NCBI GenBank assembly: GCA_030141605.1
Contig: JAQGDQ010000123.1
Location: forward strand, 496,001 to 560,000
Direction: 5' to 3'
Length of the DNA stretch: 64,000 nt
Source of the DNA: Tubiluchus corallicola
Taxonomy: Eukaryota > Animalia > Priapulida
Shown here: positions 14,583 to 64,000 of the stretch, one piece after another
Layout of the letters: each line of letters opens with the position of its first letter
Position numbering within the stretch: position 1 is the first letter of the stretch
Program-made: the position numbers and the translations under genes
Notes under the pieces: generated by a model
The model's input: only the letters and a program-made list of their open reading frames with translations
Database searches by the model: none
What the model was told of the DNA's origin: nothing

Positions 14583-15295
14583 CTAAATGAGTCTGGAGGG
14601 CTACTAAATGTGTCTAAGAAAAGTCTCACATACTAATATGTCTAGCACGGGTCTCCTATATTAAATGAGTCCATGAGGGATTACCCATACTAAATGAATC
14701 CAGGACGGGTCTCCGATACTAAAGGAGTCCAGGATGGATCTTCCAAACTAAATCAGCCCCGGTTTCTCATACTAAATGAATCCACGATGAGTCACTCATA
14801 CTAAATAAGTCCAGGATGAACCTCTCATACTAAATGAGTACAAAATGAGTCTCTTATGCCAAATGAGTCCAGGATTTCTCTTTCATATTAAATGAGTACA
14901 CGATAAGTCACTCATACTAAATGGGTACAAGATGAGGCTCTCATATTAAATGTGTCCTGGATAACTCTTTCACACTAAATAAATCCAGGATGAGTCTCTC
15001 ATACTAAGTGAGTCCAAGATGAGTTTTTGATACTAAATGAGTCGAGGATGAGTCTTTTATAATAAATTAGTCAAGGATGAGTCAGTCGAACTAAACGAGT
15101 CAAAGATGAGCGTTGCATACTAAATGAGTCCACGATAAGTCACTCATACTACATGAGTTCACGTGAGTCTCTCATACTAAATGAGTACAGGATGAGTCCT
15201 TCATACCAAATGAATCTAGGATGTTTTTTATGCTAATTGCGTCTAGGATGAGTCTCTCATACTAAATGAGTCCAGGATGGGTCAGTGATGATAAA
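14583..15295. repeat. 29-bp minisatellite, consensus ACTAAATGAGTCCAGGATGAGTCTCTCAT, about 24 copies
   Basis: ACTAAATGA-like anchors at 14771, 14800, 14829, 14858 and onward (period 29). Copies are more degenerate at the left edge. Confidence 0.92.
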
Positions 15296-21700: not shown

Positions 21701-22363
21701 GTAAAATAATGTTAGGCAAAAAGCTATACTGTTTGTTAATTCGCATCGTAAATTTCGAACATACCTCGTCAAAATCACCTCGTACTACATGAACATCACT
21801 AGCAAGTGTTTTCAAGTAATCAAAAGACTCCTTTGTGCACAGATTACCCGTGCAAAGAATGTGCTGAATCTTTCCAGGAACTAGTAGTTTCTTGAACTTT
21901 TGAGGTAGACTGTTGCATCGATGTGGAATGTGCAGGTCTCCTAATACCAACACCAACTGAAATGTTAAAAACACATTTTGCACCAGTAATAATAATAATT
22001 ATCATGTACTAATTATTATAATATTAATAATAATTATTATGTAAGAAGAATAGTGGTACTGTTCTTCTGATCAAAAAAGAACTCACTGCACACAAGTTCA
22101 TCTGGAAAGTATTGACTCTGTGTGAATGTACTTAAATTACATCACAGATAAAACTGAGAACTTGAGTGATTTACCATCTTAGTGGTGCTAACGGTAAATA
22201 ACATCTGTGGCTAATCTCAAGATTTTTATGTATCACTACTAGCTGGTGCTAAAAAAGGCCGCGGGCGATAGTACTTTTAATATAATTTTTTTAGAAAATA
22301 AGGCACATGTGAACAAAATATAATTAAAACAGGCGAATTATCTAACTAAAATAAACTCACCAT
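18762..22363 (-). CDS. VPS29: Vacuolar protein sorting-associated protein 29 (retromer/retriever subunit), 5 coding exons, 181 aa
   Basis: Exons (minus): 22361-22363 (ATG|gtgagt), 21765-21956 ([43 protein letters not shown]...GDFDE), 21483-21596 ([30 protein letters not shown]...), 19703-19824 ([36 protein letters not shown]), 18762-18876 ([34 protein letters not shown]). All introns are GT-AG, phases are consistent and the total is 546 nt. A minus-strand AATAAA lies at 17888-17893. Confidence 0.98.
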
Positions 22364-43667: not shown

Positions 43668-46600
43668 TTATGTTGTTGGCTTGTTGACTTTATAGGAGAA
43701 GACAAAGCTGACTGCATTGCCAACAGCTTGCAAATGGCTGCCCTGTAATTAGTTGCAAATAATAGTAACTTATACGTATAACTTTTTTAGTGAAATTAGA
43801 AAGACTCGTAGATTACTTTCGTCGAGATAATATTAATAATTTTAATACGATTGATGCTATTATATTGCTTATGGTGAACACAGCCAGGCATTTTATAGTA
43901 GCTAATTCTGTAAGTGGTATTTACTCTGCTTTGGCATTTAAGATCTGTTTTTATTTAATTTAAATGAGAAGTATCGTTCATTAAAATACTGGACAGCTGA
44001 ATTGGGACTTGGGAGACAAAAAGAAAAAAATGCTTAAAGTCAAATTTTGTGATCTCACCAATTTATGGTAAAGCAGTAGGGGCAGATGTTAAAGGAAAAC
44101 CAGTTCTTGAATTAACAAAATTTATTGCATTTTAATATACACTGAGAAGTACTGAATTCACCGCACAATATATGCACATAAGATGCCTTGCTTAAAAATG
44201 CAAAATAATTTTTTATGTTCCGCCAAACGAACCTCGCTGAGGACAAACACAAAAAATGATGTAAGCTGGTAAGTAACAGGAAAGCACGCTTTTCATCAAA
44301 TAGCAAAAAATGGTATTATTAATATCTACTATTATCGTGGGTAACTGATTTTATTATATAGTGGGCAATAAAGATTCATCAAACAGCAAAAAAATGGTAT
44401 TATTAATCTCTCGTTTTATGTTTTGGACTGCTTCTAAGTAATATAACAGCAAATGCAGCTGCAAAAAAGTTTGCTGAAGCACCTGGCAGGATAGGTGTTT
44501 ATACTGAACGGCAACCATATGACGTCATTTTTCATTCAAAATGAGCACCCCAAGTGTGAAATTATCATGACTTTAAATTGACTTTACTAATTGCACCAGG
44601 CTTTAAACTGAACGGCAACCATATAACGTCATTTTTCATTCAAAATGAGCACCCCAAGTGTGAAATTATCATGACTTTAAATTGACTTTACTAATTGCAC
44701 CAGGCGCCTGTAAACTAAAGCTGAAGTTACTGCTGAAACTTTCTTAACATTTTCCCCCCAAATGTTAAAATAAGTTCAACTTCCTAAAAGTCCTGATTTT
44801 TCCTTTAATGTATCCAGCATGACGCAAACAGGGCACTTTTTTTATTTTTTCGATAAGTTTTTAACCACTGATAAATTTAATGTGTGAAGCTTAAGAACGC
44901 GTCCGCCAGAAGACCATGCAAATTCGAAAAATTCCGGCACAAGGTTAGGTAAACCGATTCAGACCAAAGTTCGGGTATGAGGTCCACTAGTCACTAGTAT
45001 TCACTATGTGAATCTGCTTGGTCCAACTCCTCATAGTAGCAGAGGTACGACATAGGCCGATTTTCATGAAAAAGTGCCTATTTTTCTCTATTTTTTTACA
45101 CATATTTGAAGGATTAACCATGCAACAACCACTGAGTTTGAATAAATCTGACTCTGCACAGTATTGGGTCTTGTTATCTTCTCCAAAATGACTTTTCGAC
45201 TTTTGTCCCAAACCCCCCTCTTTCAGCTCGCATTACGCACAAGATGCAAATACTCCGTCATTTCAAAGTCTTATATCTTACCCACTGCGGGGGCGGGAAC
45301 AAAAATATCGATATGTATGTGAACAGAGCATCCCATCCCACTATGTTGCAGTGACAATTTCGATGGAGCGAATTTCCACCCTATTGTAAATGACCCTTGA
45401 AAGAGGCATGTATCAGGGTGAAAATATAGGTAACAACGTTCATCAAAAAGCTTCGTGTAGGTAACATGAGTTGTCAAATCCTGTCAAAATACTTCAAAAC
45501 GTCATAAATATTCATCTTTGGCAACTAGGGGCCTGGACAGCACATTGGTTAAACTACCGACAGGACTGGACTCTAGCATTCAAGATGGCGGCCACTGCTG
45601 GACTAAAATGTTCGTTTTCTGGGCTGTTTACCAGCGTTAAATGCGGTATTCTGACTAGTTATCCGCACAAAACGAATATTGCGAATCTGTTAGCCTGTAC
45701 TAAAGACACTGGAGCGCATTTAGAGCGCTTCCATCTTCAAAAAATGAAATATCTACGGAATGGAAATTGCTTCTTGCAGGGACTGGAAAATGTTTTATGT
45801 ACTGTTTATTTTCTATGCTTTGTAAATGTTATGTACAGGTTATTGCCTAGTTATTACTCATTGTCTTACGTAGGCGTACAAGCCAGGACACAAAGAAAAT
45901 TGCCATAAATCTGAGCGAATGCCCAAAAAGTAGGGGACAGATGGTTACCCACCTCTGGTCTCATTGACCTACAGTTATCTCATCTCTTTGTTGCAGGATG
46001 CCATTATGCAATATTGAAAGGGTCGGTTAGTTGCACAAAGTTACCCTACCTACATCTGTATATTAAGTCACTAGAGTTTCTGTGCTAAATTAAACTTTCA
46101 CTTGCACTGGCCTTTAAAAGCTTTTATCGATAAATTAACTTTTACCAAATAAAATTTACAGTAAATAATATTAATTGCTGTAAAAACATCGTTACAATAA
46201 AACTTTAATTCTCACTTGAAGAACGCAGTTCTGTATTGGTCCTTTGTAATGCTCCCACTCCATCAGTTGATCCATAGATAAGTGTTTGGCTTTCACATTC
46301 ATAGGTACCATACTGTCAATTTTGGAAGATGAAATGGCACCACATAGTTGGTCACACACGCAGTTCAGCAAGTCATGTGTAGCACAGGTTTCACTTTTCA
46401 CCAGAGTAAATAAATCCTGCGAACAATTTGTCATAACATAAAGACAGATAGGAAAATCCTATTAATAAAATACCATTAGGCATTGTTGTGGCAAGAAATT
46501 TTTAATAAAAAAGGAAATAAAAATAAATTTCATCAATAATGCAAGTATTTACACATTACCTTGTGCATTACCACATTTGTTTATGGTGTTGATGCTGCAA

Positions 46601-49600
46601 ACCAGCATATCGCACAAGCAGACTTGAATGTTTGTCTCTGATTTTCTTTAATAAACTTCAGTATATTAGCTCAAAAGTCATTGTAATAATAATAGCAATT
46701 TATTTCCTTAATACTCATGGTACAGTTCAACCAATTATGAAGTTGAAGTTTCCAATTGCTGCTTAAAAACAATTATCGTGATTGACAGTTTGTTTCAAAA
46801 TGCAGACTCACACGAGTTACTCATGCATTCCCTTTTTTACCAGAAATTCAACTGATCAAAATTTGCATATACAACCTTTAATTCCTCTTGAGAAAAAGTG
46901 ACAGTGCTGCTGCAGCTGCTGGCATCGACTATGGCACTGCTCAAGCCTTGTTTCATTACTTGCCGCTGATAAATCTTTTCTTCTATGGTGCCCTGTATAA
47001 GACAAAATAACTAACACACCTGCAAATAAATATGTAATGCAACAGTAACATTGGTTAATACATATAGACAGCTAGGTAACAGAACCATCTCAAAACAGTA
47101 TTGTAGGCCCCCAGAAAAGCAGTGTATTGGGACCCCCTACCTACACAACCATTCTGGAACAAAAATGTAAATGTCGATAAAATTAAACATATATTTATTG
47201 TATTGGTACTTCCAGTATAGTATAGTATAGCTTAGCATAGTATTTATTTATTGACAGCAAATCACAACATTCATAGATTAGCATGGGCCCGATGCACATC
47301 GAGTCCCGGGGCAACTGCCCAGCATGCCCATGCATTAGAGATGCCTCTGCCATGCAAGGCTAATAGTACAACAGTTAAAGGTCTACATTTACTAGGAAGT
47401 GAAATGTGAAAGCAGGTTTAGAGAAAACAGAATTCCTACAATTAAGCTGTTACCGAATTGAAATATTTTATAACATATTTTCCTGAAGCAAAAGGTACAA
47501 TGTAAGTACTGCCAACAAGTTGTTGGCATTTAGCAACCAACAAACAAGGATCGTGAATGCATCTTCTCAAGCGGAGCAATAAGCGGCTTCATGTAACAAT
47601 AAACCTTCGTTGTACAAAAGACTGCAGATCCCAAGTCAGATGTCACTAGAATGGTTATTTGCAATCTGCCAAGTGCTTTACAGTAAAAAAGACAATGACA
47701 CCATCCCAGACACGGACTCCATAAGTGGTCCAATGGTTGAACTGCGCAGATAGAGTACAGTATCAGGAATTAGGTCTTTACAAGTGAGAACAGGCATATT
47801 CCAAGTTTTTTCACGTACTCCCAGCCACTAATGTGAGCTACTTTTCTTGTCTAAGAGTCACACCACAAGTTGAAAAAGTGCAAGGAAAAGATTGGAAGAT
47901 TCATCTAGTAATACAACATCTACATTCATCAAGATTAAGATTATGACAGAGGTTCGGCAAAACGTTTGTCAGTAATACGGTCATGTATTTGAGTGGGCCG
48001 GCTGACACTTTAAATGAGATCCTGACCTCCCCAGACAATGTGATACTTGCTGAAAGACGATGTGATCAACCTGACAAGACGTTGTCCAGGACATGTGGGT
48101 CTCCCGCTATGATTCATCACAATTCAAATCAACAACTCTTATGCATATAAAAAGCTAACAGTGCATTTCTGTAACTATCTACATAGTAGATGACAATGAG
48201 TGCAAGTTTTCTTGAACAGCTTGAACCACTTTCTGTCTGCAGAAGCAGAGAGTGGAGTCCTTTTGTTAGACATGTACAATTGTGCAGGCATTAGTATCCA
48301 CATCATTTTACATCATTCAGTCAATTATAGGCATGACATCAATACCATGGGACACTTCCAGCACCTGTGCCATAGTGGCCAGTATGCTGTGGATGCCTGT
48401 AATAAGCAGCATGCTAGGGTTCCCCGTTTGTGCATGGTTAGTATGCATTATCATAATCTATAATTACATAATAATTCATAGGTTTTTGTTACTATTTTTA
48501 CTAGGTGGCATTTAGCTAGCATGGCACATTACTGGGAAAGGGGAGACCAGAAAAGAAAAGCAGCAACCGCTACCTGCCAATTTCATGTGACGGGCAAATG
48601 ATCCAAAAACTGTATCTAAACTAATTGCGTTATGGTTAGTAAATAAAACGATATTGTAGAAGAAAACACCTAAAAATGATTCAATCCAATTCTAAGAATA
48701 AAATTGCTTTTAAAAGACAGTAATAAAATACCACTGTGAGCAGACGATATATGTGCACTGTTCTTTTCTGTCCATCTCGCCATACACGAGCCATGGCCTG
48801 CAGGTCATTGGCCGGATTCCAGTCAATGTCGTAGAGAATAAGCCTCGAAGCTCCGATCAGGTTTAATCCTTGTCCGCCAGCTTTGCAGCTTAGTAAGAAT
48901 ACAGCTAGAATGCGAATACAACAGAATTTAATTAATAATTTATGCAAGTCATGGATCGAACTCATCGTTGACAAAGATATCAAGCAGTTTCTTCTAGTAT
49001 TAGTATTTATAAAATTTCATGTCCATAAGCTTAAATAATGATGCCAAATTTAGGTGTGTTTGAAGTGACATATACCAACAAAATTACCACCTTTTTAGCC
49101 ATTTCTAAATATGAGCAAGAATGCAAAACCAAACTACATCACGATTTCACTAACCACATAAACAACTAAAACTCTACATACTTTCTGAAGCGTTCCTGTT
49201 GTTAAACTGATCTACCAGTTCTTGCCGTCTACTGGAAGGTGTTGTCCCATCCAGTCTCAAGTAACGATAATTGCTTTTAACGCACACTTCTTGTAAAATA
49301 TCTAACGTCTAAAAACATTAACCACTTGATTACAAATACATTTCAACTGCATCGATGTACAACAAATTTAGGACGAGGTTTCTCAGGAATTTACAAAATA
49401 AACAATTTAGTGGTTGTAGTTTACAAATAGTGGTAACTTTTAACACAATTTAATTACGGTGTAACAATTAATACTCATAGTATATAGTATAATAATAAGT
49501 GCTATTAATACAATTATGAATGCATGTTTAAACTTTATTGCATTTTCTTTATGGCATATTCAGACGTCGAGACTTCTCCCGCAACTTCTCTCTGAGAGTA

Positions 49601-49947
49601 CGCCACACGTGTGAATGGTTGGCAACTTTTCTTGCAGCTTATTGCAAACCCAGAAGGAAAAGAGAAAAGTTGCACAGCAAGTTGCGAGAGAAGTTGCCAA
49701 ACCACTCACACCTGCAACTACTCTCAGACAGAAGTTGCGCAGCAAATTGCGAGATTAGTCTCTACGTCTGAACGTGCCAGTAGCATACCTCAGTATAATT
49801 TGAAACAACAACAGATTTCTCTACATTTTTGTTTGTTGCATGAAAAGAGTACAGCAAGCTAGATAACACAAGGAGTTTCCCTGAATGTTCTGCCAGTGAC
49901 ACGTGCTCTCCAGAAAACAATGACAGTATATCGTCAAAAAGGCACAA
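43668..49947 (-). CDS. RAD54B: DNA repair and recombination protein RAD54B (SNF2 family), C-terminal six coding exons (helicase-C lobe and C-terminus); 5' exons not in the window
   Basis: Exons (minus): 49789-49947 ([13 protein letters not shown]...VVVSNYTE), 49182-49308 ([27 protein letters not shown]), 48732-48904 ([56 protein letters not shown]), 46876-46992 ([24 protein letters not shown]), 46216-46416 ([25 protein letters not shown]), 43668-43742 (AVSFVF..*). GT-AG with consistent phases. YDIDWNPA and LSMxQL match RAD54B rather than RAD54L as I recall them. Confidence 0.93.
44093..44804. mobile_element. Putative non-autonomous Kolobok-type element containing a 104-bp tandem duplication
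   Basis: TTAA|AGGAAAACCAG ... CTGATTTTTCCT|TTAA (TTAA TSD, AG termini). The internal duplication 44503-44601 / 44607-44705 has one mismatch. Confidence 0.55.
49553..49778. mobile_element. Palindromic MITE (Harbinger-like GGC...GCC ends) in a RAD54B intron
   Basis: GGCATATTCAGACGTCGAGACT versus reverse-complemented end GGCACGTTCAGACGTAGAGACT. Internal inverted GCAACTTCTCTC / GAGAGAAGTTGC. TSD unclear. Confidence 0.65.
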
Positions 49948-50689
49948 CTGTATGGAATAACAGACAGCCAAAATTAATATGCCATAAGAGTAATAAAACA
50001 TAAGTTACATGCAGAAATTTAGTACAGTTAACTGTGCATGCTTGCACAGACAACAGTAATCAGAAAAATAAGGATTTTGATCAAGAAGTTGATTGACTAA
50101 GATACTAAGCTGGCGAATTCAGACTCAATTTGTGAAAGGAAATTTATCTTTTTTGAGAGGGATTACAATATTTTGTTTACGTACAGTATGTAGATTTAAC
50201 AGTACTGCTAATTTACAACAGCTAGTGTTCTTGTTGGTAAGACAAAGTTAGTTTCAATTGTAGAAAAGTCATGTTCAAGACTACAGAATGTAAAATACCA
50301 AAAGCAAAATCAACATCAGAAATCAAAATTTTATAAGACATAGACAATTTATTTTTCTTCTCTTAAGCATAATGCAACAAATCAACAATTGACTGGATGT
50401 ATGTTCCTTCCATTTCAGGACTGTGAATTTATAACGATATCATTTTGAAGTAACTTTAAAAAAAATAAAATCTATAATACTAACTAACATGTACCTAATA
50501 ATAGGCCCAGATCTATAATAAAGTCACAGGAAAAAAGTCACGGAAAAAGCCACAGTTCTGGCTAAGGTCAGGGTTAGGGTTATTTTTTTTCCAATGCATT
50601 TTGTCAGCAACTTTTTTACCTGGGATCAGATAACCAGTAATGATAGTAATGCTAGTTGTTACAGTAGTCAGCTATAAGACTAGATCTTA

Positions 50690-51300
50690 ACTTTAATAAT
50701 GTTTATATTTTAGATTACGATAGGAAGCAGTTTTCATATCACTGGGAAGGCTATTCCACAAAATAGACCCTGGAATTTCAGTGACCTGTCTCAAATTTGT
50801 GTTGAAACGTTCTATGTCATAATTGCTGCTGCTTGCAAATCTAGAGTTGTAATCATGTGTTGTGTCTATAGAGTGATAGTAATAAGAAAACAGTACTGGA
50901 TGAGTGTTATGTTTGAATCTGTAAACAAAATTGTTTAATTCTAATTTATGTATGTTTTAGTTTTAGCAGGTTTAATTCATAACACAACGATGTAACATGA
51001 GCTCTTCTACTGGCAAATGTCATTAATTAAATAAATTTATTTTGATTGATTGTAAGGGGTTTCAAAGCTGAATTAGGGGCAATGCCATGAACAGTCAGAA
51101 ATGAGTTTCATTGTATCTTTATTGATATTATGCCCAATTTAAAAAAAGACATTCCATTAATTTTGCTTATTTTGCTGTTAACATGTTGGAATGGGAATGC
51201 CATGCCAATTAATAGTCAATTATTATTCCCAAGTGTTGTTCCTATATCTGTAATTGTCATGTGGCCTAAAACCAATTATTGCACCAAAATAATTGAGATT
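50690..51300 (-). mobile_element. Decayed LINE (CR1/L2/Crack group) 3' fragment
   Basis: The minus strand encodes broken RT C-terminal text (..HDYNSRFA...FQGSILWNSLPSDMK-like), similar in style to the 12-13.4 kb LINE. Confidence 0.55.
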
Positions 51301-52092
51301 CTTTTATCATTTGTCTGGGAATAGTTTGTTCATCTAGCCCTGTGTTTAGCTACAACTCTGGCAAAGATGTAGTAATCGGTAATTTATGCTACGTATCGTC
51401 CATTGTTAAAGATCCAACATGCCAGATAATACAGAAACAATTTGTATAACGACTATAACACAAAGCATGGTAAATGAGCAAGCATTCAGTAACTCAGCGA
51501 GCGTCTGCTTGTACAGTGAATGAGGCGCATGCGCATTTTTCCCACGATCTTGTGCTGATAGGCAAGCCTGTTCGAGTGCTTGTTGCTGGAGCTGATGTAC
51601 AAAGGAAAAGTACGGCAGAAAATATTGCCCTCAACGCGAAGCACAATGTAGCAATGAATGATTTCAGTGAATTAGTTGAGGAACGTACTGATCATTACAA
51701 AACGAATCGGAGAATCATCATGTGAAAGAAATTGCCACAAATACCTTCAGTAATGCAAGTTATGAAGATTACGAACCGGCTGTGCCGAGGAGCTTAATGA
51801 ATGGAAAGCAGTTCAAACGCAATTCGATACTCGGGTAAGACGTATTACAAACATATTCGCTCCGCCATATTGACCCCATACTAATGCGATAAATTAGTTA
51901 AGGACTGCAATTAGAAACGTTTTTTCCAATAACAAGAAACGTCTTATGATACAACAAAAAATTGCTATACGGGAAGAATGTAGCAACATAGTTTATGAGA
52001 CATTGAGTTTAATTTAATAAATGTACCGGCAGTCCATAAATGCAAGTACATTTTTGGTGGGGAGGGGGTTTGAATCTCTCCAAACTTAGATC

Positions 52093-52311
52093 GTGAGAAA
52101 CAATTTTAAGTTGAGTGTAAGAGTGAAGTCATGTGAAAGAAGCTTTTCAAAGCTTAAACAAACCAAAAACTGCTTGCGATCCACAATGGAACAGTCAAAG
52201 CTATCTGATCTTTCGGTTTTATCTGTTAAAATTGACTTAGCAAAAGTAATTGATTTTGATGAAGTAATTGACAACTTTGCAGCAGTGAAATCCAGGAATG
52301 GAAAGTTCTGA
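52093..52311 (+). pseudogene. hAT transposase C-terminal dimerisation-domain fragment (ZMYM1-like)
   Basis: SCERSFSKLKQTKNCLRSTMEQSKLSDLSVLSV...IDFDEVIDNFAAVKSR matches the hATC signature (ERSFSxLKxxKxxLRSTMxQxRLxxL). Confidence 0.85.
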
Positions 52312-52679
52312 TTGCTGACATAAATTATAATTAGTAAAATACTGAACTGTTTGTGTTTTAATGCCAGTTTCTTTTGATACTTCAACTAAGAAGTGTATTT
52401 TCATATGATTAAAAGTGCTGCTTCAATGTGCAAATATATCATAAAAATTAAAAATATTAAGTTTTCAATTTAAAATAAACATTGTCAGTATACTAATGTG
52501 TGCTTAGCACTTTAACTCAGTAGGATGGAAAATAAAGTGATGTTGTCTAGATGATGTTTCTCCTAATCGCCATGCAGCAAGTACTAGCTATGCACATAAG
52601 ATCATACTAAAGGATACAGTATATAAGCTCCAATGCACGTTTGATACCATGAGTACTGCACCGAATGACACCAACCTTG

Positions 52680-52801
52680 TGGTTGCCAGATTAGAAAATT
52701 AGAAATATGGGACACTCTTATAATCTCTTTCCATACACACACATATATAATATAAGAGATTATAAGTGTCCCATATTTCTAATTTTCTAATCTGGCAACC
52801 A
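52680..52801. repeat. Near-perfect fold-back inverted repeat (~48-bp arms) derived from a hAT-like end
   Basis: TGGTTGCCAGATTAGAAAATTAGAAATATGGGACACT(CT)TATAATCTCTT pairs with its reverse complement at ~52754-52801. A related end (AAATATGGGACA...CAGCAACCCTA) lies at ~53156-53200. Confidence 0.85.
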
Positions 52802-53626
52802 TAGGGCAACTGTATATATATATATATAGACATAAATTTAAACACGCCTAACACCCAGATCAATATATTATATAAAAGTAGAGACATAAGTTAAAAACAT
52901 TAAGCAGGGATTTTAATGGGTTATGAGGAAAACAAAAGTAAAATCATTTGAAAATATTTATTTAATACCGAAAATGGAGAAATATTATGATTATTTAATA
53001 ATTACATTTGGGATATTTTCATCAAAAGGATCTGAGAAAAGAAAATACAATTATTCATAAAGTTACTAGTAAGAACCCGTAAGAAGGTAGTAAAAATGCA
53101 TTTTTATCACGAAATTTGAAAATGAACTAAATACGCCACGGGGGACAAAATTATCAAATATGGGACATGTCCTGTATATAAGGGACGTCCAGCAACCCTA
53201 ACCCTAGCGAAGCCCCTGTTCACCAGACAGGCACACCTTAGACGTAGATATTTTTCTTCTCCGTCAGTATATGATTAAATTATTCGTGAGGCAAACAAAT
53301 AATAAATTTATTTAGGAGATGGGCTAGGAAAGAGCTCAATGAACAACTTTTAGCTCCTTTGATGATTTTCAAAATTTATAGTAATTCTTTTCAATGGAAG
53401 GCATCTGTTACATAATAGCAAAATGTTTACTACAACAATGTTGTGAGATACATAAGTTATTAATAACATCCTAGCATTTTAGGAATAACTCATCATTTAA
53501 ATTTTTGACAGGACAAAGTTTATAGGCTTCAAAGTAAAATATCCTCTAAAATCTAATAAATCTTAACAATTTTATGCATACTAAAACTGCTGTGATGCCC
53601 AGGTATTGCCTTTTCCACAGTTTTTG

Positions 53627-53710
53627 TGTGGCACTCCAGCACTCAGCCTTGGCTTATTTAATACCAGTGATTGTGGCACACCAGTACTCAGCCCTGGCTT
53701 ATTTAATACC
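53627..53710. repeat. 45-bp-period direct duplication
   Basis: TGTGGCACTCCAGCACTCAGCCTTGGCTTATTTAATACC followed by TGTGGCACACCAGTACTCAGCCCTGGCTTATTTAATACC. Confidence 0.8.
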
Positions 53711-55478
53711 GGCGGTTGTGACAGGATCTGGCAAAGGATTCTGTGATAATCAGGAATTATCAAGGATAATCCTTTAGATGAAACAGTGAATTGGCAGAAG
53801 TGTCTCAGCCCGGTTGGGAAGATGAATACACTCCCTGAAGGAGATAAGCAGCCCGAATCAGTGTAGTAAGTGAAACAGTTTAAAGTTCATATAGAATCCA
53901 GTGGTCATCTATATCGCATTCACTGACCAGTGCTAGGTTGCGGAGTTGAGCCTAAAAGCACATCAATGTGGGTTCCTGATTGATGAAAGTCGACCCCAAA
54001 CCTGACTCTTGAGGCCTGACTCCCAGAAGTTCTTAAAATTTTGATTTTTGAGGCATTTTATTAACCAGACTCAAACCATTAGATGATAGATATTATATTA
54101 TGAACCTTAAGTAAAGGTACTGCTTAATATTTATGTTTAAGGCAGGAGTATTTTATTATCAACAGACTGTGGCTTTTCTTTACCTGAAGATCTAATCAGC
54201 AAAACATTAGAACCAATGGAATTTTAAATGCATTGTTTTAAGCTGCAGACCCTGCATTGATCAGCTTCAGTATTGTTTAATTTTACTTATCTAAGCATAT
54301 GCCATTATAATTCGGCTATCACCCTTGCCACAGAGATACTAAAAAGTATTATTATACTGTATTAATAGCATGTAATTATATAAAAATAACTTCCTGAAGT
54401 TTTTCTAGACAATAAAAGAGTAGCTATAAATTGTTGATATTATGATTTATAAATTATTGAACATGTTTTATTTGTTTTGACTTAAAGATTTGAAAGACAT
54501 GGGGAAGCATTTTGCAATTTTTTAACTCATTATCATTGAATATTAGAGCTACATTTATAGCCGAATGACTGTTATAAGTCTGTTGCTACTAAGCTTTAAT
54601 TATCTGACTTTTTTGGTGAAACAGTTGTCTTAGCTATCAAAACTGACTAATTTGTTGCTAAAATAGAACATGTGACAGCAATTTTTGCAAAAAGTTAAAA
54701 GTCAAATGAAAACTAACATGAGAAAACGAATAATTTTTAAGAACAAGAAACAAAGCCATTAGAAGTGCTATTTAGTACACCGCTGTGCGCTATCTTCCGA
54801 TATGATTTATTGAAGACATTTTATTTTGTTTTCCAAACTCTTAGCATCGACTAAGCACGGCATCGAATTGCACCAAGGAAATTCTGTCCTTTTGTCCGTT
54901 ATGCTACAGATTTTGTTATGTTACTTTTGTTTTCTATATTATTGTGTTATGGTTTTGAAGTAGTTTTGCAAGGTTGTCTCTCATACCAGTTCAGTTCTTT
55001 GGTGTCTTGATCATCTTAGGCGTGTATTTTTTGTTGCCTCAGATGTGAGATATCAAAAGCCGACAATATACCTTTAGTCTGTTCCCGCAAAATTCAGTTA
55101 CTTTTTTAGTCACTTTTCGATTTATACATGCCCATTAAAAAATTTTACGAAACGAAATTGTGTAAATACATGGCAACAATTTCAAAATAGAAAGCATGAA
55201 TTTTTTTTACTCGAGAGAGGTACTCTGACTTTTCAGACTCAGAAATAAACACTTGTACTTCAATTACTTGTGTTGGATAAGTAATCCATGTTGTTTATGT
55301 TGGGAATTAGGGTTATGATTCTATTTAATTTTACTGTAGCATTATTCTTCGAGAAAAATCATTATTTAATGTTTTTAATCTCGAATTTTATATTAGTTAA
55401 AGTTAACGTTTTATTCACAGGTGAACAATTTGATGCTAGGAAAGCAAGTGAATAGTCTGCACAATCCCTTGTTCAATC

Positions 55479-58400
55479 ATGAATGCTTATGAAATGAACG
55501 AAGAGCTGCAAGCTGCCATTGAACAGTTAGAACTTGAGCAAATCGATCTGTGTGGAGAGCAGGCTGGCGAAAGCTCTATTTCAGAACTGGTTTATACTAA
55601 CAGCATCAAAAATATTACTAGCAGCGTAACAGATGTGGGCTCAGTACAGCAGCAGCAAGCAGGCAGTCAGACTCGTTCAGCTGTGACTCATGCTACGTAT
55701 CAGCAGCAGGCTCTATCCAGAATAAATGAGTTTAATGTCAGCCTTGAGCTTATGAATACAGCCTGCGTTGATAGTAGAGATGGTTTGTGTGCGCTGGGTA
55801 CCGGGACCGCTGTAAAAGATTTTGTCACTTTGGACGAATTCCAAGCTCTGCAGCAGAATCAAATGAAAGAATCATTTTCTGCTAGTGGGTTACTAGAGAG
55901 TTTAAACAATAATGAAATAACTAATGGTACACCAGAGCATTTAGACAATAATGAAAATGTTTTTGACACTCTACAGAGTGAAGGGTACATTGAAACTGCT
56001 ATTGATTCATTAGGGACATTAGAGAATAACGACGTTGCTGTGACTATTGGCAGCAATGCATTAGATATAAATCTACTGCCGTTCAGCCAGCAAGACTCAG
56101 ATCATTCGTTGTCTAGGCAACAACACACTACTTCACAAAAAGTAGAAATCAATAAGCAATATGAATTGGATCTGCCCATAGAAGATGTTACGGAGCAACG
56201 TCTTGCTAGTGATGTTACCAAGCAGATGTGCAGTGATTATGGTATTGATGTGAAATTCAGTGTGGAAAATTTTACAAGTATGCCTGTAAATAATCAGGAT
56301 AATGACTTGAATCGTGATATAGATGATTCTGATTCTGATTCTTCAGATTCAGATTCTAATTCTGACGACTTTGATAATCAGGACAGTATTCAGAATTCAG
56401 TTGCTCCTTTAAATGAAAAAACTTCTGATAGCATAATTAATGGTTCGGTTTTCGAACGCAATGAAGCTAAAGTGATAAGTGGTTTTCCCATTAGTCTAAA
56501 CAGTGATAATGTTGAACAATTACAAGTAGAATGTAAAATCACAAATTCTCCAGTAAATATTGAAGAATGTCAAAAATACACAATAGAAAATTCCTGTAAG
56601 ACGATCTTATTCAAAACTGATGAACAGTGTGAATGTCTCGACTGTGGTGCATCACTGAGTAATCTTCTGAGTTCACAAGAACATCTTGGATTAATGACAG
56701 CCGTTGTGAAGTTGTGTACATGCTTACAGGAAGGTAGAAAATGTTTACATTATGCAAATGAAGTAAGCACCTCTAAGTTACATGTGAGTGAACTATACAG
56801 TTGTCATATGTGTGAAATAACTTTTCACAGACTGTCTGCATTAACAAATCACATGGTTATGAAACATAATGATGAGGACTCAACTGACAATCAAAGTGTT
56901 GCTGCTAATTACATACAACCACCTGCTAGTTTGCAAAAGACCCATAAATGTGGAATTTGTCCAGCTTCATTTTCCAATGTTTTTAATTTGCAAAAGCATG
57001 GTAGAGTTGTTCATAGTGCAATACCAAAACAGTATCGATGTACTAAATGTACTGCTTCTTTTCAAGCCTTGAAGAATTTAACATTACATCTTCGGCTTCA
57101 CGAAAATGAGCAGCAGTCATTTGAGTCTCAGCGAATAGATAAAATAGCGACAAAAACCCCAACAGCAGGAACTGATGAAGCCAGTAAGCCTGATCAAGCT
57201 AGTAAGCCTGACAGTATTGACAAAATACCAGTGAATGGCATTAAGAAGGCTGGGAATACAGATGAGAAATCAATAAAGTGTAGAATGTGCCCGGCTGCAT
57301 TTAAACATACAGCAAGCCTTAAAAGGCACATACAAATCACTCATAACAAGATAAAAATGTATTCATGCAAACTCTGCCCAGCTAGATTTGGAGTTAAATC
57401 AACAGTTAAAAAACATATGAGTGATGTGCATGGGGGTGTGCCTAAAAAGTATAAATGTCAACATTGTACTGCTTCATACAGAGCCCTGAAGAATTTGCAG
57501 CGGCACATGAAACTTCATATTGCTAAATTACAGCCTGTACAGGAAAAAAAGAAAAACCAGTACCTCTGTTTTTTGTGTAGCACAAGATGTTCATCAGCGG
57601 ATGTTCTTAAAGAACATATTAAAACCCACTCTGAGACGAAAGAGCCAACGGCAGATATAACAACTACACCAAGAAAAGCACTTCTGAAGATATTTAAGTG
57701 TAATGTCTGCTCAGTTAGTTTTCACAGTCGACTAGACAGGGATGTGCATTTGCAAACTGCTCATGAGAAGGCAAAATCAACACCTGAGCAACAAAACAGT
57801 AGCTTGGATTCCAGTATATGCAGGGTATGCAAAAACAGTTTTAATTCTAAAGCTCTCTTGGACCAGCACATGAAGCAGTATAAGAAGCTGTATGAGTGTA
57901 ATGCTTGCCCTGCTATGTTCAAAGTATCCACTAACAGAAATAAACACGTGAATAATGTGCATTCTGGTGCATTAAAGGCTTTCCGATGCGATGTTTGTGG
58001 AGGTGGATTTCACAGAGAATATAGCTTGCAAAGCCACATGCTACTGCATAATCAAGCCCACAAAGAGCAATATAAGTGTGATAAGTGTGATTTCAATTGT
58101 AATTCGTCAGAACAGCTGAAGACTCATATCATTTGCAAGCATTCAGTAACTGCACAAAGTCCTGGAATTATCATAATGGACACTCCAACTGTAAGCCTGC
58201 AAAAAATCAAAGTAGAAGATTCACATGCCGAGGCTATTACTATTCAGGAGTCTGCAGACATGGATTTTTGTGAAGATATGGAGCACTGTTGTGACATTTG
58301 TGGAAAGTTTTTCATGAAAGAGTCAGAGTTACTAGTACATGAAAAAGTACACATGGCACTAAAACCTTATAAATGTGGAATTTGTGGTCTAGACTTTTGT

Positions 58401-61400
58401 GACATGAGTACACTTGACATCCACCAAACATCACATACCAACAAGTCATATGAAGCATACACAAAAATGGTTGCCGAGACTTCAAATTCAAGCTGCTATG
58501 TTGACTTCCAAAATATTGGTATGCGAGAACTACACAGCAGTGGTAATGAAAATCTTAGTAATGAGAGAAAAGTGCCATTTGGGAAGAAAAGAGAAAGAGT
58601 TTATGAGTGTGACACGTGCAAGAAAGTCTTCAAAGATGGAGGAACTCTGAAAGTTCATAAGCGCATACACACAAACGAAAGGCCATACATTTGTCACATT
58701 TGTCAAGCAACATTCAGACAACACCACCATCTAGTCAGACATGTAGCAAGCCATAGTGATGATAAACCATTTTCTTGTGATGTGTGCGGAAAAAGATTCA
58801 AATTAAGCGAATACCTCACAACACACAAGGCTGTGCATTCACAGGCTAAGAAATTCAAATGTGGAGTATGCGGCAAAGATTTTCGCCTATACAGCGATTT
58901 GAGAGCTCATCAGAAAGTTCATGCATCAAAAAACGCAAAGACTGATGGTATGTTTGACAATAAGCTTGCTTTTGATAGTCATGATACTAGTCACTCTAGG
59001 CTTAAACCCCACAAATGTCCCGTTTGTAAGAACGGTTTTAAAGTGGTTCGCCACATGAAAATTCATTTGTGGTCACATTCTAAGAACAATATGCACTATT
59101 GTCTCACTTGCGGAAAAAAATTTCAATCTCAAGTTGGCTTAGCTGTCCACAAAAGAATTCACATTGTAAAAAAAGAACTTGAAGAGGTTGTGAATGCAAG
59201 CACTAACTTGACGCAGTACGTGACCAGCACTAGTAAAGGTAAACAGTACCAATGTCCCGTATGTGAAGTGAAATTTGCACAGTCTACCTATCTGAGTGTA
59301 CACTTGCGAGTTCACACAGGCGAGAAGCCATATAAGTGTGAGGTTTGCAATAGTCGTTTTCGACAAAGAGCCCATCTTAAATGTCACATGTTCACTCACA
59401 CAGACCACAAACCTTTTTCTTGCAAAATATGTGCTGCATCTTTTAAGCAACTTTCAGCTTTAAAAAAACATGGTTTAGTACACACTGACTTAAAGCCATA
59501 CAAATGTGATTCTTGTAGTGCAGAATTTGCACAATCAACCGACTTGCTAAATCACATTATGGTACATAACGAAAATAGACCCTATACTTGTCAAACTTGT
59601 TTCGCTACATTTAAAACTGAATCATTCTTCAATAGCCACATTAAAGTACACACCCATCTTAAACCTCACGTTTGTGATGAATGTGGAAAAGACTTTCGAA
59701 TCGCTGCAAATCTAACAGTTCATAAGAGAACTCACTCTAACGAAAAGCCATACCAGTGTCAAATCTGCTCAAAGCGATTTAAACAAACAGGACACTTGAA
59801 AGTTCATTTGTCAATACATGCAGACTCGAAACCATATAAATGTGATTCTTGTGGTGCCAGTTTTAGGCAACCAGGAAACTTAAAGAGTCACCAAACCGTT
59901 CACACAGATGAAAGGCCACATGTATGTGACATTTGCCAATCAGCTTTTAAAACGTTTAGTTATTTGCAAAGCCACAAGCGAATACATACAGATTTGCGTC
60001 CATATAGCTGTACATGTGGAAAAACATTTAAAACACCAGATGGATTGAAAGCGCACGAGAAAACTCACACAGATGAAAAGCCATATGAATGTCGCCATTG
60101 TCATGCACGCTTTAAGCAGCAGCCTCACCTCAAAACTCATCTACTTACACATAGTACTCACAAACCTTATTGCTGTGACACTTGTGATGCACGCTTTAAA
60201 CAGTCATCCCACTTGAAAGTTCACATGGCTGTTCATAGCGATGTGCGACCATTTCCTTGTCATATTTGTGGTGCGGCATTTAAAACATCAACTTCACTCA
60301 GTAGTCATAAGCGCATTCACACGGACCTGAAGCCATATGTATGTGACGTATGCAACAGAGCCTTTAAATTTTCGGAAGGACTAAAATCTCACAAGAAAAC
60401 ACACTCAGCTGACAAACCTTTTTCATGTGACCAGTGTGGAGCATGTTTTAAGTTGGCTGGTTATCTCAAAAGCCATATGCTAGTTCACACTGAAATACGA
60501 CCCTATTGTTGTTCTACATGTGGAGCTACTTTTAAAACAGCCAGTTACCTCCATAACCACAGCAAAATTCACACAGACATTCGACCTCATATTTGCCACA
60601 TTTGTGGAAAAGGTTTTAAAATGTCATCAAACTTGCGAGCTCATGCACGAACTCATTCAAACGAGAAACCATATTCTTGTGACCAATGCTCTGCACAGTT
60701 TAAGCAAATTGCTCATTTAAAGATGCATGTCAGAACTCATTCTGATTTGAAACCCTATAAATGTGATTCCTGCGAATCTCGTTTCCGACAGTCTGCGCAT
60801 TTAAAAGTTCACATGGCTGTTCACACTGAATCACGACCATTTGCTTGTGAAATTTGTGGAGCTGCATTTAAAACACAATCATCATTAAACTCACACAAGA
60901 AAATCCATACAGACATTAAACCTCATTCATGTGATGTATGTGGGAAATCATTCAAATTTGCTGTTGGATTAAAAACTCACAGGCGAATTCATACAAATGA
61001 GAGACCTTTCTCTTGCGATACATGCCATGCTAGTTTTCGACAGGCTGGCAATTTGAAAAGTCATATGGCAGTGCATACAGATGTTCGACCGTACGCATGC
61101 CCAACATGTCAAGCTGCCTTTAAAACATCATACTATCTCCAGAATCACATTAGAATACACACGACTGCTCGTCCATTTCAATGTGATGTCTGTGAAAAAT
61201 CTTTTAAATTTAAGGAGGGATTACAATCTCACAAAAAGACACACACAAATGAACGCCCATTTGAGTGCGATACATGCCATGCACGATTCAAGCAAGCTGC
61301 TTATCTCAGAAGTCACATGCTTGTACATTCAGATGAAAGAAATCATTTTTGTGACATTTGTGGATCAGCTTTTAAAACTGCTGTTTATCTTGCCAATCAT

Positions 61401-64000
61401 AGGCGCATTCACACTGATATGAGACCATACAAATGTGATATTTGTTACAAGGATTTCAAGCTGCCCGATGGCTTAAAGGCACATAAGAAGACACATTCCG
61501 ATGAAAAACCATACTCGTGTAATATATGTGGTGCAAAATTCCGGCAAACAGCCCACGTAAAGGCACACATGTTAACCCATTCAGATGCTAAACCTTATAA
61601 GTGTGACACCTGTGATGCTTGTTTTAAGCAGTCAGCTCACTTAAAATCACATCTTGCTGTACACAGTGAAGAAAGAAAGTACTCATGTGATATTTGTTAT
61701 TCTGCTTTTAAAACATCTACTGCTCTAAACAGTCATAAAAGAATACATACTGATATAAAGCCTTATATATGTGCTACATGTGGCAATGCTTTCAAAACAC
61801 CAGACGGATTGAAATCTCACCAGATTAGTCATATGGATGAACGTCCGTTTGAATGTGATACATGTCATGCTAAATTTAAGCAATCCACAAACTTGAAATA
61901 TCACATGGTGGTGCATTCGGAAGAAAGAAATTATACATGTGATATATGTGACTCTGCTTTTAAAACTATGGCATATCTTACCACACATAAGCGTATTCAT
62001 ACAGAACTGCGTCCATACATTTGTGAATGTGGAAAAGACTTCAAGACACCTGATGGACTGAAATTGCATAAACGTACACACACAGGTGAGAAGCCATACT
62101 TCTGCAGTTTATGTGGTATGAGATTCAGGCAGTCAGGACATCTTAAATGTCACATGCAAACTATACATTCCGATTCTAAGCCATTTAAATGTGACACATG
62201 TGATGCATGTTTTAAACAGTCAGCAAACTTGCGCAGCCACATGGCCGTACATTCTGATATTCGTCCTTATCCATGTCCTATTTGTGAGGCCACTTTTAAA
62301 ACATCTACTTCATTAAGCAGCCATAAACGAATACACAGTGATATTAAACCACACATTTGTGACGTATGTGAAAAAGCATTTAAAACATCAGAAGGACTGA
62401 AGTCACACAAACACTCACACACAGATGCTAGACCCTTTGAGTGTGATACATGCCATGCCAAATTCAAGCAAGCAGGAAATTTAAAGAGCCACATGGTAGT
62501 GCATACTGAAGAACGTCCATGGACTTGTGATGTTTGTGAAGCCTCCTTTAAAACACAAGCATACCTTCATAGTCACAAACGTATCCACACTGATATAAGG
62601 CCTTACATTTGTGAATGTGGAAAAGATTTTAAAACACCCGATGCATTAAAACTTCATAAACGTACACATAGTGATGAAAAACCGTACGCTTGTGAAATTT
62701 GTCATTCAACATTTAAGCAGCTTGCCCATGTACGAGTTCACATGGCTACACATTCTGATCTCAAGCCATATAAATGTGACACTTGTAGTGCTAGCTTCAA
62801 GTTGGCAGCATATTTGAAAACCCACATGATTGTTCACACTGAAGAAAGACCATGGATATGTGACGTTTGCCAAGCTGCTTTTAAAACGTCTAGTTATCTT
62901 AGCTCACATAAGAAAATTCACACAGATTTGAGACCATACATTTGTGATCAGTGTGGAAAAGACTTCAAGCTTCCTGATGCCCTGAAACTTCACAAGAGAA
63001 CACATTCAAATCTAAGACCGTTTTCATGTGATGTATGTGGTCAGAAATTTCGGCAAACTGCACATGTTAAAGCACACATGCTTACGCATTCAGATTCAAA
63101 ACCATTCAAATGTGATACTTGTGATGCTTGTTTTAAACAGTCCGGGAATTTGAAATCTCATATGACAGTACATTCTGATGTTCGGGCTTACTGTTGCCCC
63201 ATATGCGGAACAGCTTTTAAAACAACCACATCATTAAACAGTCACAAACGGGTTCACAGTGACATTAAGCCTCATATCTGCTCCACTTGTGGCAAAGCTT
63301 TTAAAACTAGAGAAGGGCTAAAGTCACACAAATACACACACACAGATGAACGTCCATTTGCATGTGATACATGCAGTATGAGTTTTAAGCAATCCTCCAA
63401 TTTAAAAAGTCACATGATTGTGCATACTGATGTAAGACCACACGTTTGTGATATATGTCAGGCAGCTTTTAAAACAGTTAGTTACCTCACTAGTCATAAA
63501 CGAATTCACACAGATTTGAGACCATATAACTGCGAAATATGTGGAAAAGATTTCAAGTTACCAGATGGATTGAAACTCCATAAACGAATACACACCAATG
63601 AAAAACCTTTCTCGTGTGATACATGTCAAGCTGCCTTCAAGCAGTCTGCTCATCTCAAAGTTCATATGACAGTTCATACAGACGAGAGAAATCACATTTG
63701 TGATATATGTGAATCAGCTTTTAAAACTGCATCATACCTAGCCATTCATAAAAAAACACACAGTGATGTAAGACCTCATATCTGTGATATCTGTGGCAAG
63801 GGATTCAAGTTTACAGATGGGCTGAAAGCTCATAAAAAGACTCATACATCTGAGAAGCCATACCAATGTGAGATATGTTTTAGACGATTTCGACAAGGAG
63901 GACATTTAAAAATACATCTTCTTACACATTCTGACTCAAAACCTTTTAAATGTGACACATGTGATGCATGTTTTAAACAGTCTGGCCATTTAAAGGTTCA
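55479..64000 (+). CDS. Giant poly-C2H2 zinc-finger protein, single coding exon, >2840 aa, at least 77 fingers; runs off the window end
   Basis: ATG at 55479 (MNAYEMNEELQAAIEQLELEQ...), preceded by an acceptor TTTATTCACAG at 55420 and an in-frame TGA at 55422. Manual translation found no stop up to 64000 (ends ..FKCDTCDACFKQSGHLKV). The ORF track lists nothing in this frame, consistent with an ORF lacking a stop. Architecture: ~439-aa acidic N-terminus, 20 scattered fingers (56796-59160), then 57 tandem fingers with TGEKP-like linkers (TDERP, SDLKP, TNEKP) from 59247. Confidence 0.96.
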   Translation, partial: MNAYEMNEELQAAIEQLELEQIDLCGEQAGESSISELVYTNSIKNITSSVTDVGSVQQQQAGSQTRSAVTHATYQQQALSRINEFNVSLELMNTACVDSRDGLCALGTGTAVKDFVTLDEFQALQQNQMKESFSASGLLESLNNNEITNGTPEHLDNNENVFDTLQSEGYIETAIDSLGTLENNDVAVTIGSNALDINLLPFSQQDSDHSLSRQQHTTSQKVEINKQYELDLPIEDVTEQRLASDVTKQMCSDYGIDVKFSVENFTSMPVNNQDNDLNRDIDDSDSDSSDSDSNSDDFDNQDSIQNSVAPLNEKTSDSIINGSVFERNEAKVISGFPISLNSDNVEQLQVECKITNSPVNIEECQKYTIENSCKTILFKTDEQCECLDCGASLSNLLSSQEHLGLMTAVVKLCTCLQEGRKCLHYANEVSTSKLHVSELYSCHMCEITFHRLSALTNHMVMKHNDEDSTDNQSVAANYIQPPASLQKTHKCGICPASFSNVFNLQKHGRVVHSAIPKQYRCTKCTASFQALKNLTLHLRLHENEQQSFESQRIDKIATKTPTAGTDEASKPDQASKPDSIDKIPVNGIKKAGNTDEKSIKCRMCPAAFKHTASLKRHIQITHNKIKMYSCKLCPARFGVKSTVKKHMSDVHGGVPKKYKCQHCTASYRALKNLQRHMKLHIAKLQPVQEKKKNQYLCFLCSTRCSSADVLKEHIKTHSETKEPTADITTTPRKALLKIFKCNVCSVSFHSRLDRDVHLQTAHEKAKSTPEQQNSSLDSSICRVCKNSFNSKALLDQHMKQYKKLYECNACPAMFKVSTNRNKHVNNVHSGALKAFRCDVCGGGFHREYSLQSHMLLHNQAHKEQYKCDKCDFNCNSSEQLKTHIICKHSVTAQSPGIIIMDTPTVSLQKIKVEDSHAEAITIQESADMDFCEDMEHCCDICGKFFMKESELLVHEKVHMALKPYKCGICGLDFCDMSTLDIHQTSHTNKSYEAYTKMVAETSNSSCYVDFQNIGMRELHSSGNENLSNERKVPFGKKRERVYECDTCKKVFKDGGTLKVHKRIHTNERPYICHICQATFRQHHHLVRHVASHSDDKPFSCDVCGKRFKLSEYLTTHKAVHSQAKKFKCGVCGKDFRLYSDLRAHQKVHASKNAKTDGMFDNKLAFDSHDTSHSRLKPHKCPVCKNGFKVVRHMKIHLWSHSKNNMHYCLTCGKKFQSQVGLAVHKRIHIVKKELEEVVNASTNLTQYVTSTSKGKQYQCPVCEVKFAQSTYLSVHLRVHTGEKPYKCEVCNSRFRQRAHLKCHMFTHTDHKPFSCKICAASFKQLSALKKHGLVHTDLKPYKCDSCSAEFAQSTDLLNHIMVHNENRPYTCQTCFATFKTESFFNSHIKVHTHLKPHVCDECGKDFRIAANLTVHKRTHSNEKPYQCQICSKRFKQTGHLKVHLSIHADSKPYKCDSCGASFRQPGNLKSHQTVHTDERPHVCDICQSAFKTFSYLQSHKRIHTDLRPYSCTCGKTFKTPDGLKAHEKTHTDEKPYECRHCHARFKQQPHLKTHLLTHSTHKPYCCDTCDARFKQSSHLKVHMAVHSDVRPFPCHICGAAFKTSTSLSSHKRIHTDLKPYVCDVCNRAFKFSEGLKSHKKTHSADKPFSCDQCGACFKLAGYLKSHMLVHTEIRPYCCSTCGATFKTASYLHNHSKIHTDIRPHICHICGKGFKMSSNLRAHARTHSNEKPYSCDQCSAQFKQIAHLKMHVRTHSDLKPYKCDSCESRFRQSAHLKVHMAVHTESRPFACEICGAAFKTQSSLNSHKKIHTDIKPHSCDVCGKSFKFAVGLKTHRRIHTNERPFSCDTCHASFRQAGNLKSHMAVHTDVRPYACPTCQAAFKTSYYLQNHIRIHTTARPFQCDVCEKSFKFKEGLQSHKKTHTNERPFECDTCHARFKQAAYLRSHMLVHSDERNHFCDICGSAFKTAVYLANHRRIHTDMRPYKCDICYKDFKLPDGLKAHKKTHSDEKPYSCNICGAKFRQTAHVKAHMLTHSDAKPYKCDTCDACFKQSAHLKSHLAVHSEERKYSCDICYSAFKTSTALNSHKRIHTDIKPYICATCGNAFKTPDGLKSHQISHMDERPFECDTCHAKFKQSTNLKYHMVVHSEERNYTCDICDSAFKTMAYLTTHKRIHTELRPYICECGKDFKTPDGLKLHKRTHTGEKPYFCSLCGMRFRQSGHLKCHMQTIHSDSKPFKCDTCDACFKQSANLRSHMAVHSDIRPYPCPICEATFKTSTSLSSHKRIHSDIKPHICDVCEKAFKTSEGLKSHKHSHTDARPFECDTCHAKFKQAGNLKSHMVVHTEERPWTCDVCEASFKTQAYLHSHKRIHTDIRPYICECGKDFKTPDALKLHKRTHSDEKPYACEICHSTFKQLAHVRVHMATHSDLKPYKCDTCSASFKLAAYLKTHMIVHTEERPWICDVCQAAFKTSSYLSSHKKIHTDLRPYICDQCGKDFKLPDALKLHKRTHSNLRPFSCDVCGQKFRQTAHVKAHMLTHSDSKPFKCDTCDACFKQSGNLKSHMTVHSDVRAYCCPICGTAFKTTTSLNSHKRVHSDIKPHICSTCGKAFKTREGLKSHKYTHTDERPFACDTCSMSFKQSSNLKSHMIVHTDVRPHVCDICQAAFKTVSYLTSHKRIHTDLRPYNCEICGKDFKLPDGLKLHKRIHTNEKPFSCDTCQAAFKQSAHLKVHMTVHTDERNHICDICESAFKTASYLAIHKKTHSDVRPHICDICGKGFKFTDGLKAHKKTHTSEKPYQCEICFRRFRQGGHLKIHLLTHSDSKPFKCDTCDACFKQSGHLKV

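Follow-up and report, generated by a model that had tools for sequence, protein, structure and literature searches.

The final 8.5 kb of the analysed stretch of Tubiluchus corallicola DNA (64 kb, hereafter the window) contain the coding exon of what appears, judging by its sequence, to be a real, old and constrained poly-C2H2 gene. The exon runs into an unbroken array of 57 zinc fingers, most of which follow a fixed order of four classes and all complete members of which lack arginine at the base-contacting helix positions. We put at about one half the probability that the product is a lineage-specific poly-zinc-finger chromatin protein gripping long periodic A/T-rich repeats with a large number of modules, each of them weak. 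The order of the finger classes, the arginine-free helix code and the position of the gene relative to RAD54B are new with respect to the initial annotation of this stretch. The located features are listed in Table 1.

Table 1. Coordinates of the zinc-finger gene and the neighbouring RAD54B exons in the window
Feature	Positions	Strand	Details
RAD54B 3' exons	43671–46993	−	46867–46993, 46234–46419, weakly 43671–43748
RAD54B exons	48732–49950	−	49786–49950, 49177–49308, 48732–48905; profile positions ~644–797
Probable RAD54B intron holding the zinc-finger gene antisense	49951–64000	−	at least 14 kb
Splice-acceptor-like site	55398–55420	+	CAG at 55420 preceded by a pyrimidine tract
5' UTR	55421–55492	+	four stops in the main frame
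Coding exon	55479–64000	+	frame analysis; contigs of run X1 tile 53945–63974
Acidic N-terminal region	55479–56801	+	aa 1–440; 74 D/E vs 24 K/R; finger remnant at 56634
Dispersed fingers	56802–59170	+	19, singly or in clusters of up to four; a further, degenerate one at 57819
Unbroken array	59247–64000	+	56 complete fingers and one cut
H-(Q-T-G)n order of classes	59751–64000	+	n = 1, 2, 3, 2, 2, 1, 3; 49 fingers, 14 units of three or four

Reading frame and zinc fingers

A single frame is free of stops from 55452 to 63998 (+). Counted from the ATG at 55479 to the window edge at 64000, it comprises 2,840 codons and no stop, that is, one coding exon no shorter than 8.5 kb, and the chance of such a frame at the base composition of the window is about 10^-93. 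The initial annotation had described this frame as uninterrupted and open at the edge, which agrees with our analysis. Its count of 77 fingers also holds. The pattern C-x1/2-C-x12-H-x3/4-H is matched by 75 complete fingers, which places the frame among poly-C2H2 ORFs (at least five fingers in one ORF); a near-finger without the last His at aa 781, the degenerate ninth finger of the annotation, and one finger cut by the window edge make up the remainder. A second remnant without the last His, at aa 386, had been overlooked and brings the total to 78 if counted.

The back-to-back run of 57 fingers from 59247 was likewise reproduced, without a gap. The spacing is 28 aa, apart from 27 aa for three C-x1-C fingers and 29 aa for a single H-x4-H finger. 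A search of the frame against Pfam returned only C2H2-type families, zf-C2H2 and zf-H2C2_2, together with a marginal match to zf-C2H2_jaz (23.1 bits, cut-off 22.6). Six of the 19 dispersed N-terminal fingers carry Arg at a base-contact position. ORF tracks and annotation can overlook the longest finger arrays.

Gene structure and genomic context

The acceptor-like CAG lies 58 letters before the ATG, with four in-frame stops between them, and a contig of run X5 starts to match the window at 55398, the first 75 letters of this contig not fitting. These observations together make an upstream non-coding first exon probable. The gene had been called intronless; this applies to the seen coding part only, given the 5' acceptor. 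An upstream ORF of 19 codons at 55433–55492 (+) is out of frame, overlaps the ATG and ends two letters before the second in-frame ATG (55494); it could tune translation.

No Pfam domain was detected in aa 1–500 of the frame, and the Atlas look-up of the N-terminal region gave generic C2H2 clusters with low recognition. There was no Pfam match to KRAB in the ORF or in any of the 96 plus-strand frames of at least 30 aa from 43.7–55.5 kb, nor to the ZAD, BTB and SCAN effector domains in the ORF or plus-strand frames of the same region, nor to PR/SET in the ORF up to 64000 or in upstream plus-strand frames. The description of the protein as KRAB-less is accurate for the part seen, up to 64000, and extends there to other Pfam effector domains.

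Six exons of RAD54B between 43.7 and 49.95 kb (−) encode the C-terminal third of this protein. They have AG/GT ends where inspected, and the exon at 49786–49950 (−) has its own acceptor. Among the RAD54B proteins longer than 600 aa within the 120 matches listed, the best is that of Priapulus caudatus, with 343 bits against 313 for the next, which is a best match and not a phylogenetic placement. Residues 1–643, the most conserved part of RAD54B, have no profile match in the whole 64-kb window, and local scores do not exceed 41, compared with at most 38 for reversed controls and 56–173 for the known exons. A RAD54B-like stretch at 51489–51671 was rejected as an exon, its score being at background. 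Since residues 1–643 are absent from the window, the zinc-finger gene, if RAD54B is complete, probably lies antisense to it, upstream of its last six exons and inside one of its introns.

High-copy interspersed repeats with very deep cover by many contigs are found in the RAD54B introns at 47150–47250, 49600–50570 and 52010–53140; a weak match to the hAT dimerisation domain is at 52090–52308. Elsewhere in the window, two metallophosphoesterase-fold exons (Pfam Metallophos_2) at 21411–21998 (−), joined by an intron that is in frame and stop-free, belong to what we take to be VPS29. An exon with a weak GOLD_2 match at 38582–38809 (+) is presumably part of a SEC14-like gene spanning approximately 24–44 kb, and the base skews of that region fit a gene on the + strand. 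A broken retroelement reverse-transcriptase fragment (RVT_1) occupies two frames at 11964–12693 (+), and tandem arrays lie at 372–975, 14602–15283 and 33770–34364 (periods of 58/116, 29 and 30 bp, respectively). The CpG observed/expected ratio is mostly 0.4–0.6 over the gene-rich 24000–64000 and 0.8–1.1 in parts of 0–24 kb; the depletion over 24000–64000 fits gene-body methylation.

Authenticity and selective constraint

The array was compared with contigs from several sequencing runs. Contigs of run X1, which may be the source sample and hence not independent, tile the region, one of 5,386 letters spanning 56530–61915; their depth is flat across the array (181–196), although depth is no copy number. 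Run X5 belongs to a different study with the same species label and is 4–15% diverged. Five X5 contigs among the matches listed are in register with the array; over 2,177 letters they differ from it by 117 substitutions and an insertion of 3 letters. Near the gene start 9 letters are inserted in all, so that net insertions over the matches listed are limited to these 9 and 3 letters. Run X6, guessed to be RNA, yields three short array contigs (59938–60114, 62369–62539 and 63525–63743) that are 91–95% alike, and its other matches are of only 40–55 letters, to repeats.

Frame-shifting deletions are seen in contigs of run X3 (depth 5–7), where 1–2 letters are missing in the frame at 56935 and 57152 and in two gaps within 62544–63183, and in one minor X1 contig (depth 46 of 235) that lacks one letter at 56568. 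They would suit an array expanded in assembly, a coding minisatellite of recent origin or a pseudogene, but we read them as errors because they are absent from the deep X1 contigs and from X5.

Assembler multiplication of a unit is contradicted by the highest DNA identity between any two array fingers (0.77), and by exact repeats within the frame being no longer than 38 bp. The 38-bp repeat, shared by two Q-type fingers (62184–62221 and 63945–63982), is the only exact one above 25 bp in the ORF, amid otherwise saturated divergence, and may stem from local gene conversion. The long X1 contig and the in-register X5 contigs also speak against an assembly artefact, the latter from a different study, and the identity ceiling and the saturated synonymous sites bear out the earlier opinion that the array is not a fresh minisatellite.

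Codon changes in the X5 contig covering 56823–57502 (34 of 35 differences) divide unequally. In the fingers, 9 changes are synonymous and 6 non-synonymous (pS 0.116, pN 0.020); in the linkers the counts are 3 and 16 (pS 0.049, pN 0.068), i.e. pN/pS is about 0.17 in fingers and above 1 in linkers (Fisher p = 0.012); this constraint between individuals refers to the N-terminal fingers of one contig and not to the array. A low ratio in fingers is at odds with a pseudogene. Altogether, the artefact and pseudogene explanations are largely refuted, and we regard them as highly improbable. The long-term purifying selection suggested in the initial annotation agrees with this ratio and with the divergence among array fingers described below.

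The array had been noted as still open at the edge, and its continuation past 64000 is probable from the end of one X5 contig. The loose end of this contig, which sits on the paralogous finger 62172–62225, agrees with 13 of the final 14 letters of the window, then completes the edge-cut finger and adds at least 255 letters. Other X5 pieces of equal depth resemble fingers of the T and G types defined below, and run X1 contains sequences that resemble 62225–62585 by 80% or more yet do not occur in the window. The simplest reading of these sequences is that the array goes on by at least three fingers; the alternative is a paralogue.

Finger classes and their order

Array fingers were assigned by hand, with clustering as a guide, to four classes: H (Q at −1, H at 3), Q (Q at −1, N/H/Y at 3), T (T at −1, Y/S at 3) and G (D/E at 2, G at 3, often P at +1). 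From 59751 onwards they follow the order given in Table 1, the units averaging 3.5 fingers each. Pairwise finger similarity is highest at lags 3, 4, 7, 10, 11 and 14. The excess at lag 7 is 0.116 (z 5.9), a value reached in none of 500 shuffles; a similar level occurs in two of 45 other arrays of at least 14 fingers, which are shorter and offer less power. The order of 3- and 4-finger units does not keep phase significantly (p = 0.074).

Fingers of the same class (295 pairs) differ by pS 0.81 and pN 0.27, and nearest pairs by pS 0.69 and pN 0.18. Since the order persists despite saturated synonymous sites, class identity must have been maintained for long, and the duplications that formed the array are old, with the classes kept ever since. 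A C-x1-C deletion common to three distant G fingers is a mark of block duplication.

Contact residues and linkers

None of the 56 complete array fingers has Arg at helix positions −1, 2, 3 or 6, compared with 1,722 of 4,767 (36%) tandem fingers of the 276 proteins fetched for comparison. One of 173 proteins with at least 15 tandem fingers has none either. The 23 tandem fingers of the Logan protein P0166 (1,645 aa) likewise lack Arg at contact positions; at 36% identity, its array is probably independent. Lys or Arg precedes the helix (position −2) in 54 of 56 array fingers and in 19% of fingers elsewhere. Gln−1, His3 or Asn3 account for 46 of 168 canonical contact positions, the remainder being mostly small or hydrophobic residues. 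TGEKP-like (Kruppel-type) linkers are found in 2/56 fingers vs 1,852/4,767 (39%) elsewhere; Asp or Glu stands at the linker Gly position in 42 of 56, and the K/R-P of the linker is kept in 50 of 56. The p-values for these helix and linker differences overstate significance, since related fingers are treated as independent. Non-canonical linkers may weaken DNA-coupled docking.

Two further explanations bear on these residues. One is an RNA-binding scaffold, a basic, Arg-free periodic array coating long or structured RNA, as has been proposed for Xfin and for TFIIIA fingers 4–6. The lack of Arg base contacts, the non-canonical linkers, a net charge of approximately +1.8 per finger and the weak zf-C2H2_jaz match are in its favor. 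However, that match is marginal, the 28-aa spacing is canonical, the K/R-P linkers are mostly kept, and Gln−1, His3 and Asn3 are classical DNA contacts, making this role unlikely in our opinion. The other is a protein-interaction or zinc-binding polymer whose fingers are structural repeats and not nucleic-acid readers. Mostly small or hydrophobic contact positions would agree with it, while the near-invariant basic residue before the helix, the preserved K/R-P and the positive charge would not, and we consider such a polymer very unlikely.

Possible mode of action

The repeat-gripping chromatin protein that we favor would act as follows. Its array would have been built through old block duplication of a module of three or four fingers. 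Q-type (and H-type) fingers would make the few base-specific contacts of each module, Gln or Asn to A and His to G, in keeping with the pairing of Gln/Asn with A and of Arg/Lys/His with G described in PMC12264921. T-type fingers, whose residues are small or aromatic, would contact the methyl groups of thymine; the same source ascribes versatile or thymine-methyl contacts to small and hydrophobic residues and A/T-rich targets to the small-residue fingers of SALL4 and Zfp568. G-type fingers (Gly at 3, often Pro at +1) would be spacers that relieve winding strain. Spacer fingers are exemplified there by CTCF ZF8 and TFIIIA ZF4/6 and described as not yet predictable from sequence.

The Lys or Arg that almost invariably precedes the helix would serve to grip the DNA backbone. 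The 46 Gln−1, His3 and Asn3 residues would specify a purine-A step each 9–12 bp, with loose A/T-leaning sequence between the steps. Single modules would be weak, and the array would be specific only on long periodic DNA. The acidic N-terminal region is proposed to recruit chromatin partners because no KRAB, BTB, ZAD or SET domain was seen. Metazoan poly-zinc-finger proteins have a predicted preference for transposons and often target repeats, satellites included (PMC10547256).

Against this mechanism stand the non-canonical linkers described above. The periodicity, moreover, could be a footprint of block duplication, with finger classes kept only for folding. The motif predicted from the contact residues is too degenerate and holds too little information for a target search.

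A more specific version is a helical-phase ruler. With 3 bp per finger, the mean unit of 3.5 fingers corresponds to 10.5 bp, or one turn of B-DNA, and a 7-finger block to two turns, so that the same finger class would face the same side of the helix for at least 16 turns (>170 bp). A purine-A signal with a period of 10–11 bp, as in satellite or nucleosome-positioning DNA, would then be read as a periodicity and not as a motif. We rate this version as improbable because phase-keeping lacks significance and a 7-finger ancestral block gives an equal mean.

An ordinary, if unusually long, lineage-specific poly-zinc-finger transcription factor or transposon silencer would use subsets of fingers at several unrelated sites, the periodicity being a by-product of block duplication. 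Several observations agree with it: a single large finger exon behind an acceptor, as in KZNF and FiNZ genes, and the 394 ORFs with at least five fingers in a priapulid genome (PMC10547256 and its supplement); other predicted giants, as 11 of 171 proteins compared have at least 50 fingers; the conventional look of the 19 N-terminal fingers; and the existence of paralogues, shown by partial matches to other X1 finger contigs. On the other hand, fast-evolving silencers should diversify their contact residues, whereas here the classes and their order persist with synonymous sites saturated, and Arg contacts are absent from the array. We find this explanation rather unlikely, though the likeliest of the alternatives.

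Long natural arrays might be used whole or in subsets of fingers, a general question in the field. As only four classes occur here, in a fixed and long-conserved order, the 7-finger block could be expressed, its target selected in vitro and a periodic genomic target predicted. If repeat gripping is true, the array would show how a reader of long repetitive DNA is built in nature, and how repeats can be recognised without KRAB in an invertebrate lineage.

Comparison with known zinc-finger arrays

The 276 proteins used for comparison comprise 21 matches of 1,562–4,970 aa, the best 150 of 186,823 representatives and 105 further ones from the best 120 of 6,942 shorter proteins. No orthologue was found among the 21, in the best 150 (highest identity 44%) or in the best 120 (also 44%). 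The set is not a census and gives no proteome-wide maximum; it under-samples long canonical arrays, as human ZNF91 and the like are absent. By the same finger pattern, two of the 276 have at least 75 fingers, both uncharacterised gene models: XP_059608031.1 from a sandfly (4,842 aa) has 109 with a longest contiguous run of 7, and XP_043936739.1 from a lungfish (5,807 aa) has 77 with a run of 4. They show 29–36% identity and do not share the order of classes. The longest unbroken run in the set is 28 fingers, half of the 57 here. The placement of this protein at or beyond the extreme was therefore right for the unbroken run and wrong for the total, which is not a record. Cephalopod C2H2 expansions are documented (PMC12513265, PMC9068888). 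Some octopus C2H2 transcripts reportedly have more than 60 domains, a figure that would reduce the novelty in length.

C2H2 finger repeats are said to occur "as often as 30 times" in PMC5291267, and our literature search met no characterised protein in which over 50 fingers are contiguous or finger classes recur periodically. An unbroken, ordered, Arg-free array is without counterpart in the material searched.

On the features considered, the gene does not appear to be of the KRAB, ZAD, BTB or PRDM9 type. Human ZNF91 has 36 fingers, and both ZNF91 and Xenopus Xfin have KRAB domains and canonical linkers, which are absent here. The resemblance to the two proteins lies in a very long C2H2 array, which here has approximately twice as many fingers (Xfin has "as many as 37", PMC7614390). 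The array shares with the PRDM9 zinc-finger minisatellite the 84-bp coding repeat. Unlike PRDM9, no SET, KRAB or SSXRD domain was seen in the part of the protein within the window, and the fingers do not form a homogenised array that varies mainly at its contact residues, having at most 77% DNA identity and pS of 0.69–0.81.

The closest likeness is to lineage-specific tandem poly-C2H2 genes of metazoans, i.e. KRAB-ZNF, cyprinid FiNZ-ZNF and the cephalopod expansions, as described in PMC10547256, PMC9068888 and PMC12513265. Common features are 28-aa fingers, one large exon behind an acceptor, an acidic N-terminal region and no orthologue found outside the lineage. The gene differs from them in that its seen part has neither KRAB nor another Pfam effector, and in having at least 57 contiguous fingers, four classes in fixed order, no contact Arg and TGEKP-like linkers in only two fingers. 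In mechanism, and by analogy only, the small or hydrophobic contact residues resemble those of the A/T readers SALL4 and Zfp568, and the possible spacer fingers those of CTCF and TFIIIA (PMC12264921). These proteins use from two to eleven fingers, whereas the present array repeats its pattern 14 times or more.
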